Source of the DNA: Eledone cirrhosa | Lineage: Eukaryota | Assembly: GCA_964016885.1 (NCBI GenBank) | Contig: OZ024746.1 | Coordinates: 54,746,001 to 54,810,000, forward strand | DNA length: 64,000 nucleotides | Direction: 5' to 3' | Shown: positions 44,981 through 45,975 of the stretch, in pieces | How the letters are laid out: each line of letters starts with the position of its first letter | Numbering within the stretch: the stretch's first letter is position 1 | Program-made: the position numbers and the translations under genes | Notes under the pieces: model-generated | What the model saw: only the letters and a program-made list of their open reading frames with translations | The model's database searches: none | What the model was told of the DNA's origin: nothing

Positions 44981-45207
44981 TGTAAGTATGTATGCATACG
45001 TACATACATATATGTATACAGACGTACAGTAGCATGTATATATATACATACAGGCATACATATATATATATATATATGCACGTATCAGTTTACCGAACAT
45101 TTATTATAATGCTCGGTTTGTTCGTTTGTAAACAAACAAACAGCCTGAATTACGCCGTACAGTGTTTAGGCAACCACGTCACCTTTTTGTTCAACACCGA
45201 CACAGGA

Positions 45208-45250
45208 ACGATGTACTAGTTTCCAGCTTATTCGCTATCGTCAGCACCGT
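45208..45250 (-). ncRNA. Type I hammerhead ribozyme
   Basis: acggtg CTGACGA TAGC-gaataa-GCTG GAAAC-ta-GTA^catcgt: stem I 6 bp, complete core, stem II closed by U-G, palindromic stem III. Confidence 0.85.
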
Positions 45251-45284
45251 ATACTTTTCTGCCAGATGGTTAAACGTCCGAAGG

Positions 45285-45332
45285 TATATACTTTCCTTAT
45301 GAAAATTAACGGCTGAGCAGCCTAATTTGCAT
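45285..45332 (-). promoter_or_regulatory. Putative snRNA-type promoter cassette (octamer + PSE-like + TATA)
   Basis: ATGCAAAT-16 nt-TAATTTTCATAAGGAAAG-TATATA, conserved with family A. Confidence 0.5.
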
Positions 45333-45975
45333 ATCGAATGAGTTCAGTAGGCCAGGCGCACCGAAAAAGATAAATGGAATAGAATGAAACTAAATTTCAT
45401 TTCTCACTCTTAGTACGGCACTTATTTAAATGTAAGTATGTATGTATACGAAAAAAAAGGTGACGTGGTTGCCTAAACACTGTACGGATTAATTCAGGTT
45501 GTTTGTTTGTTTACAAACGAACAAACCGAGCATTATAATAAATGTTCGGTAAACTTATACGTGCATATATATATGTGTGCCTGTATGTATATATATATAC
45601 ATGCTACTGTACGTCTGTATACATATATATATGTACGTATACATACATACTTACATTTAAGTAAGTGAATAGAGGAAAGGTGTTTCCTCGAAAACCAGTA
45701 TGACTCTAAAAACCGGTTTGTCTGTGTGTTTACATACAGAATAGCTGGACACTCACAGTAAAGTGTCCAGTGAAAAACTCGGTACATCTACATATGTACA
45801 CGTGTGTGTATTCATATGCATACTAGTATTTCAGTATACATATGTGGATGTGCATTTTTAACTTAATTGTTTAAGCGTCAGTCATACAAAAGTGAGTTAC
45901 AAACGAAACGAAACTTAATTTCGTTTCGTTATTTGTTTTTATCGTCTCCGCTGAACCGGTACGTACTCACGCTCT

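Follow-up and report, generated by a model that had tools for sequence, protein, structure and literature searches.

A probable hammerhead retrozyme of an animal genome, with a sister family alongside and marks of a proposed Penelope-type insertion

The minus strand of the window (the whole stretch of 64 kb that was analysed) contains one hammerhead in a 450-bp unit, here called family B. The unit adjoins an inverted piece of itself and then a tandem array of another hammerhead family, here called family A. This locus raises the question of what family B is and how it came to lie here. The components of the locus are as follows.

40340–44980, no strand: TA-rich microsatellite of 4.6 kb, left flank of B and its probable target
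44981–45450, minus strand: a single 450-bp unit of the family B retrozyme (45430 to 44981), with 20 nt from the unit before it (45450–45431)
45450–45666, plus strand: inverted, 5'-truncated copy of B without the hammerhead, starting 21 nt 3' of the cleavage site and running 12 nt past the unit junction
45667–46867, plus strand: tandem array of family A with 2.6 copies of a 465-bp unit, its hammerheads at 46076 and 46540 and its end in (TA)n
46867–46898, no strand: (TA)16, right flank

The window is AT-rich eukaryotic DNA, dense in microsatellites, with LINE-type reverse transcriptase fragments and a GIY-YIG domain. The microsatellite load and the LINE and Penelope-like fragments point to an animal host. 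Broken LINE-type retrotransposons are seen at 8269–10195, 51630–55201 and 59960–61665 (RVT_1 matches; RNase H at 8269–9276). A dispersed short repeat, SINE-like by its size, has at least eight copies in the window (418–747, 1803–2005, 10876–11056, 20213–20335, 21747–22091, 23435–23875, 28208–28510, and 50039–50185). Another repeat, of 580 bp, is present at 2900–3469 and 18671–19250 with 92% identity, and has a more distant inverted relative at 4234–4706.

The B unit corresponds to 44981–45430, and its 3' end abuts the TA-rich microsatellite. The following 20 nucleotides, 45431–45450, repeat 44981–45000 at 19 of 20 letters. On the other side, 45450–45655 is an inverted copy of 45192–44981 (91.6% identity), and 45636–45667 is an inverted copy of 45450–45419 across the junction (96.9%). 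The unit is thus joined head-to-tail into itself without coding DNA, and this junction is present twice at the locus. The earlier note took the 20-bp terminal redundancy and the inverted copy across the junction as signs of a tandem or circular template; this is supported, with the redundancy at 19 of 20 letters. A full multimer of B is not directly seen at the locus, while the sister family A is present in tandem. There is no ORF of at least 120 aa within 45110–46867. The GC content is 0.40 for 45078–45192 and 0.36 for A.

The ribozyme of family B consists of a core and an extended stem I.

45208–45250, minus strand: type I hammerhead core of family B, found by descriptor scan
45197–45265, minus strand: extended stem I of family B, with a 3x1 internal loop (UAU / U; in A, UAA / U) and two distal helices

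Stem I is composed of 6 bp (45250–45245 paired with 45208–45213). The core sequences are CUGACGA (45244–45238) and GAAA (45223–45220), and between them lies stem II, which has 4 bp in the window copy with U-G as the closing pair. Stem III is palindromic and the same as in family A. N17 is A at 45214, and the cleavage is predicted between 45214 and 45213, at the triplet GUA. This triplet is found in natural hammerheads and cleaves, as far as reported in PMC1636495. The extended stem I is probably a loop-loop tertiary module.

The descriptor scan of both strands of the whole window finds exactly three hammerheads: 46076 and 46540 on the plus strand, both in A, and 45244 on the minus strand, in B. 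Local dinucleotide shuffling of the window, done 200 times, leaves 0.06 matches per shuffle for the loose descriptor and none for the strict descriptor (stem I of at least 6 bp, stem II of at least 4 bp). Because the strict motif is seen in 0 of 200 shuffles, the B motif is beyond chance. The hammerhead claimed earlier at 45208–45250 is borne out in its coordinates, GUA triplet, U-G closing pair and palindromic stem III. A relaxed scan adds one weak core at 1759 (1745–1800; stem I of 5 bp, stem II of 2 bp) beside the dispersed repeat, probably by chance.

Rfam gives no match in the window at the gathering threshold. In a permissive scan of 44900–47000, both A motifs match Hammerhead_HH9 with 33.7 and 30.8 bits, short of the threshold of 52, and B is absent among the 125 matches listed. 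The miRNA, snoRNA and sRNA matches of that scan were rejected as low-complexity matches below threshold. The isolated 71-nt B region folds no better than shuffles (z −0.39; for A, z −2.22 and −2.95); in its lowest-energy fold, some of the core is base-paired.

Other copies were seen in public runs. Contigs of four of 23 runs (X1, X4, X5, and X6; the kind of run is not on record) were mapped on 45163–46131, and the results cover 40 of the 106 variant rows, 15 of the 31 joints and 24 of the 449 loose ends. None of the 23 is listed as an RNA run, which bears neither way on expression. Run X1 has 25,302 contigs on 45163–46131, many of them on the TA-rich part. At the listed sites in 45198–45283 it has 80–101 contigs, a depth that is not a copy number. 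Based on these 80–101 contigs, B is a multi-copy family. Runs X4 and X6, which have other organism labels, carry both families; the depth in X6 is about 2, possibly by carry-over. One A contig of X4 maps as a closed 467-nt loop, which fits either an array or a circle. In X5, a small run of the same study, variants that are minor in X1 dominate in both families. This pattern could come from another individual or from an expressed subfamily.

Four letters of the extended B ribozyme in the window differ from 99.7–99.9% of the X1 depth. With the majority letters, the pair 10.1–11.1 is U-U and not U-G (99.8% of contig depth), a fifth stem II pair and the tetraloop appear as in A, a G-C replaces the mismatch in distal stem I, and one U-G becomes U-A. 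The majority letters give a better ribozyme, so the hammerhead of family B is a canonical one of type I whose stem I contains an internal loop. The window copy is decaying. The non-canonical U10.1-G11.1 pair of the earlier note is therefore present in the window copy, but it is near-private to it, as the family majority is U-U. A U-U at the base of stem II is also described for axolotl HHR_Amex2, in the relevant part of PMC7229834. Core variants of B are absent among the 40 of 106 variant rows shown.

The comparison of A and B might shed light on what is kept in these units. Their end-to-end identity is about 69–73%, varying with the gap settings. Local alignment scores are 111.5 upstream and 115 downstream of the ribozyme, and each is reached by 0 of 2000 shuffles. 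Both monomers fold into one common chain of hairpins. By these alignments, B is the sister of the adjacent family A, colinear with it over the whole unit. The second hammerhead family proposed earlier is thus real, and its separateness is qualified by the colinearity with A at about 70% identity.

The hairpins of A and B were registered by hand on their common loops and compared pair by pair. In proximal stem I, all six pairs are kept, three of them changed on both sides and none broken. In stem II, 4 of 5 pairs are kept and 3 of 5 are changed on both sides. Stems I and II had been called entirely different in sequence yet still pairing. They do pair, but they are homologous stems with compensatory changes rather than entirely different ones. 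Outside the ribozyme, the following features were compared.

45092–45184, minus strand: three hairpins on the 3' side of the ribozyme, whose A homologues differ by compensatory changes (6 of 6, 8 of 8, and 10 of 10 compared pairs kept)
45298–45333, minus strand: octamer hairpin, with the perfect octamer ATGCAAAT in its 5' arm (45332–45325)

The hairpin directly after the ribozyme keeps all six compared pairs, the UUUA-loop hairpin all eight with two double changes, and the 10-bp hairpin all ten with three double changes. The octamer hairpin shows zero changes, with all ten compared pairs identical. The hairpins outside the ribozyme thus seem to covary between A and B too. Covariation is also seen inside A, where joint changes at 46084 and 46095 (44% and 22% of the X1 depth) preserve a stem II pair; both changes are found on one contig of X5.

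For an unbiased covariation test, the structure was taken from one family and the alignment from sequence only, under four settings. Double-changed pairs are kept in 13 of 20, 15 of 20, 11 of 18 and 13 of 16 cases. A null that shuffles changes by position reaches these values in 13, 0, 147, and 0 of 5000 trials, with means of 5.8 and 4.6 for the 13 of 20 and 15 of 20 (A structure mapped on B). Under a stricter null with the changed positions fixed, they are reached in 207, 51, 370 and 8 of 5000 trials, and the values for all changed pairs are reached in 44 to 671 of 5000. The structure is conserved; the whole-unit covariation statistics from two families are modest and depend on the gap settings. 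The circular fold has a z of −5.0 in B, with 68% of it paired, and −8.2 in A. The reverse strands also fold well (z −3.3 and −6.0), partly from TA palindromes. The selection on the ribozyme structure proposed earlier finds support at the family level, from the compensatory pairs between A and B and from the stem II pair covarying inside A.

Family B shows the features of non-LTR retrozymes. It has an intact type I core and a head-to-tail unit of 450 bp (the range being 150–450 bp), and it is multi-copy. It is also non-coding, has no LTR pair, has GC below 50%, and forms a stable self-paired monomer. In all likelihood, B is an animal non-LTR retrozyme, neither coding nor autonomous, with A as its sister and a proposed Penelope-type insertion.

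The octamer hairpin differs from the other hairpins. The perfect octamer is seen in all three units of A and B, 88–100 nt upstream of the core, and is followed by an 11-nt box. Octamer and box lie at the same place in both families, 23–24 nt apart, within one of the best-kept blocks (16 of 20 and 15 of 20). This hairpin is conserved letter for letter while the others covary, which indicates that its sequence is probably read by something, in DNA or in RNA. A protein-binding RNA hairpin and a DNA promoter element are both candidate roles.

In newt satellite 2, the octamer is part of an snRNA-type promoter. It can be speculated that A and B likewise are self-transcribing, from an octamer, a PSE-like box and a TATA-like box upstream of the hammerhead. 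The snRNA promoter of newt satellite 2, as described in part of PMC2220036, and the equal placement of octamer and box in one best-kept block of A and B favor this idea, which is compatible with the retrozyme reading. It is unlikely nevertheless: the 11-nt box makes up the other arm of the octamer hairpin, so that RNA structure accounts for the box, and the distance from box to core differs by 12 nt between A and B. Under the insect rules given in PMC1761439, the box is without the invariant C6 of PSEAs, and the start of the TATA-like box, expected at position 34, comes 18 nt after the 11-nt box. The promoter reading was downgraded on these grounds, the boxes being hairpin arms and the insect PSEA rules failing.

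The octamer-box pattern is found at 13 loci in viral contigs and the hammerhead pattern at 70. These 83 loci were taken as chance, as one has weak stems and none resembles A or B by blastn. The nine loci with the octamer-box pattern in metagenome contigs were likewise taken as chance, with no downstream hammerhead core and no blastn match.

Stem III bears on how the retrozyme would cleave. A one-pair stem III under a palindromic loop is described as requiring a second hammerhead (in parts of PMC4209133 and PMC6155905), and axolotl HHR_Amex1, with a one-pair stem III and a palindromic tetraloop, works as a dimer according to the corresponding part of PMC7229834. If stem III is formed between two partners, stem I should by topology be formed between them as well. 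The homologous registers of stem I have 6 of 6 pairs, with energies of −5.0 and −1.9 kcal/mol. The crossed A/B registers have 4 of 6 pairs (2 of 6 mismatched), with +6.3 and +2.8 kcal/mol. The energy of the stem III duplex is equal for all pairings of A and B. Since the crossed stem I is mismatched, A/B heterodimers are predicted to cut poorly. The cleavage in A/B heterodimers through the identical stem III that the earlier note suggested thus appears unlikely, because a double hammerhead swaps stem I.

The B locus has one hammerhead only, and the adjacent A array has two. In a preprint (Li et al. 2026, bioRxiv 10.64898/2026.07.22.740005), an "active" retrozyme locus has at least two consecutive hammerhead units, which is the case for A and not for B. 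Eight of nine predicted retrozyme dimers in the same source (bioRxiv 10.64898/2026.07.22.740005) are without cleavage.

The ends of the elements suggest how B was inserted. B ends at the position P1 (44981) against the 4.6-kb TA-rich repeat. A ends at the position P2 (46867), just past the hairpin H1.

45383–45401, minus strand: hairpin H1, between the end positions P1 and P2 (the "tail")
29296–29385, no strand: miniature inverted insertion of family A, consisting of H1 only, within a TA repeat, its two ends matching P1 and P2

Penelope-like elements, as described in part of PMC8557442, insert at TA targets, carry a tail at one of their ends, and have a 5'-truncated copy in inverted orientation next to the 5' end. 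Their tail is bounded by two internal start sites of reverse transcription, according to part of PMC11167929. At the B locus, an inverted 5'-truncated copy adjoins the 5' end and the target is a TA-rich microsatellite, as in a Penelope-type insertion. For a target-site duplication at the B/A locus, there are TA repeats on both flanks. H1 might be a start region of reverse transcription. The two ends are seen in A, at the array end and in the insertion at 29296–29385. For B, a hint of P2 comes from the loose ends at 45383 and 45370 (agreement 0.66 and 1.0, with 46 and 3 records, among the 24 of 449 listed). The tail is about 50–65 nt long, compared with 30–40 in Penelope-like elements.

Among the 15 listed joints of 31 in total, 11 join the 5' end of B to an inverted piece. 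Of these listed inversion joints, most of which have a short side of 20–28 nt, seven are 2–19 nt short of a full unit from P1. This clustering of 7 of 11 within 18 nt has p 6e-5; with 45419 counted once, 5 of 9 has p 0.006. Joints about one unit from P1 are compatible with a circular monomer as the template and with a multimer that was primed twice. The inverted B piece begins 21 nt downstream of its cut site, and the A array begins 25 nt downstream of its own; both starts are at the foot of the extended stem I, which is a hint from two cases only. The inversion, the TA-microsatellite target and, more tentatively, the two end positions around H1 match Penelope-like insertions and suggest that Penelope-like retrotransposons moved B. 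In searches of the literature on hammerhead retrozymes, no earlier account of such insertion marks was found; the supplements of PMC7229834 and of the preprint lie outside this scope and may hold cases. The papers, as far as their relevant parts go, only infer a Penelope mobilisation of retrozymes, from a common ribozyme type, co-occurrence and pLTR homology.

The same marks could be read in another way, with B as a pseudo-LTR, solo and truncated, that belongs to an autonomous Penelope-like element with its coding part elsewhere, and not as an independently spreading retrozyme. Inversion, tail and TA target are Penelope marks (PMC8557442, in part), retrozymes are proposed to be pLTR-derived in part of the preprint (bioRxiv 10.64898/2026.07.22.740005), and close hammerheads on opposite strands are seen in truncated elements (PMC4209133, in part). 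Against this, the B unit is head-to-tail at both copies of the junction without coding DNA, and its sister A is a pure tandem. The geometry of the B ribozyme is canonical and not of the minimal pLTR type, as the latter is described in part of PMC4209133. No large class of loose ends toward an ORF is present among the 24 listed rows. The solo pseudo-LTR is therefore improbable.

A slightly less probable possibility is a satellite or foldback at the DNA level, in which the hammerhead would be a leftover and template switching during replication of an unstable microsatellite would have produced the inversion. The decay of the window copy and the palindrome-rich, TA-rich DNA are in line with it. 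In contrast, the majority copies keep a better ribozyme, compensatory pairs are seen between and within the families, and different copies share one recurring position of the inversion joint (the 7 of 11 above).

Two Penelope-like elements are seen in the window itself. The one at 35070–39239 is decayed, with frameshifted RT-like ORFs, inverted ends of 500 bp at 89%, and short AT-rich repeats at both ends. Its C-terminal GIY-YIG, at E 5e-4, is below the cutoff. The other is a fragment at 55542–58150 between TA repeats, with a 380-aa frame on the minus strand that contains HTH_animal and GIY-YIG look-alikes, and inverted ends of 228 bp at 98%. Protein clusters for the Penelope-like elements of the window give HTH_animal and GIY-YIG at 0.94–0.98. 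A PDB search with the RT-like ORF gave no match. A relaxed scan of the ends of both elements found no hammerhead, and neither A nor B shows sequence likeness to them.

At the listed rows, near-private changes are found at 10 of 228 nt in B and at 2 of 465 nt in the first A unit (Fisher p 0.0004). As B has about ten times more of them, B is an old copy and older than A, and the A array was most likely inserted later, at the TA repeat beyond the inverted arm of B. The least probable alternative is that a single template-switching event inserted both A and B, with pairing of the two by their identical stem III as a help. It could draw on the adjacent and co-oriented inverted B and A array, the 2-nt microhomology at their junction and the equal stem III energies, but it is contradicted by that difference in near-private changes and by the mismatched crossed stem I.

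The following course of events could be considered for the retrozyme B. Tandem copies would be transcribed into multimers, in which neighboring hammerheads of the same family combine into a double hammerhead, whose cleavage sets monomers free. The monomers would be circularised by a host ligase. A Penelope-like RT-endonuclease might then nick a TA microsatellite, and reverse transcription would start internally, at one of two sites flanking H1, and copy about one unit. A second priming would add the inverted, 5'-truncated piece, stopping at the foot of the long stem I of the ribozyme. The A array could have landed later in the TA repeat, at the right end of the B locus.

It can be speculated, tentatively and at less than even chances, that the genome records Penelope-type reverse transcription of circular monomers, with first strands ending about one unit from where they were primed and 5' ends at the foot of the long stem I, that A and B are kept apart by a stem I code, and that the octamer hairpin is their common handle for a protein or a promoter. 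If so, each family would self-cleave only with its own kind, and a single pair of families would suffice for a direct test of the proposed partnership of retrozymes and Penelope-like elements. As many animals are known to have non-LTR retrozymes, the element itself is ordinary. What this family adds is the Penelope-type insertion marks at base resolution. The sister pair suggests which hairpins are conserved in shape and which in sequence, and offers ready constructs for dimer specificity and template choice.

Family B resembles the metazoan non-LTR retrozymes of Cervera and de la Pena (2020), as presented in part of PMC7229834, in being a non-coding tandem unit of low GC, with 450 bp at the top of the range of 150–450 bp. 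Further resemblances to the retrozymes in that part of PMC7229834 are the canonical type I hammerhead, the self-paired monomer, two related families per genome, and co-occurrence with Penelope-like elements. It differs from them in its GUA and in being a monomer with an inverted piece and not a multimer.

The weak palindromic stem III is shared with axolotl HHR_Amex1 and the U-U at the base of stem II with HHR_Amex2. Two sister units slightly differing in length are also found in these axolotl and newt satellite 2 systems (parts of PMC7229834 and PMC2220036). In contrast to them, the units here are longer (450 and 465 bp), the weak stem III is common to both families, and an snRNA-type promoter is a weak possibility.

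With Penelope-like elements and their pLTRs, B shares the insertion into TA-rich DNA and the 5'-truncated copy that lies inverted beside the 5' end, and perhaps also a tail between two end positions (PMC8557442 and PMC11167929, in part). Unlike these elements, the B locus is without an ORF for RT plus GIY-YIG between pLTRs. The minimal hammerhead of Penelope pLTRs, in the description given in part of PMC4209133, has a helix II of 7–8 bp and a helix I of 4–5 bp, whereas that of B is canonical, with a helix I of 6 bp plus an internal loop and a helix II of 4–5 bp.
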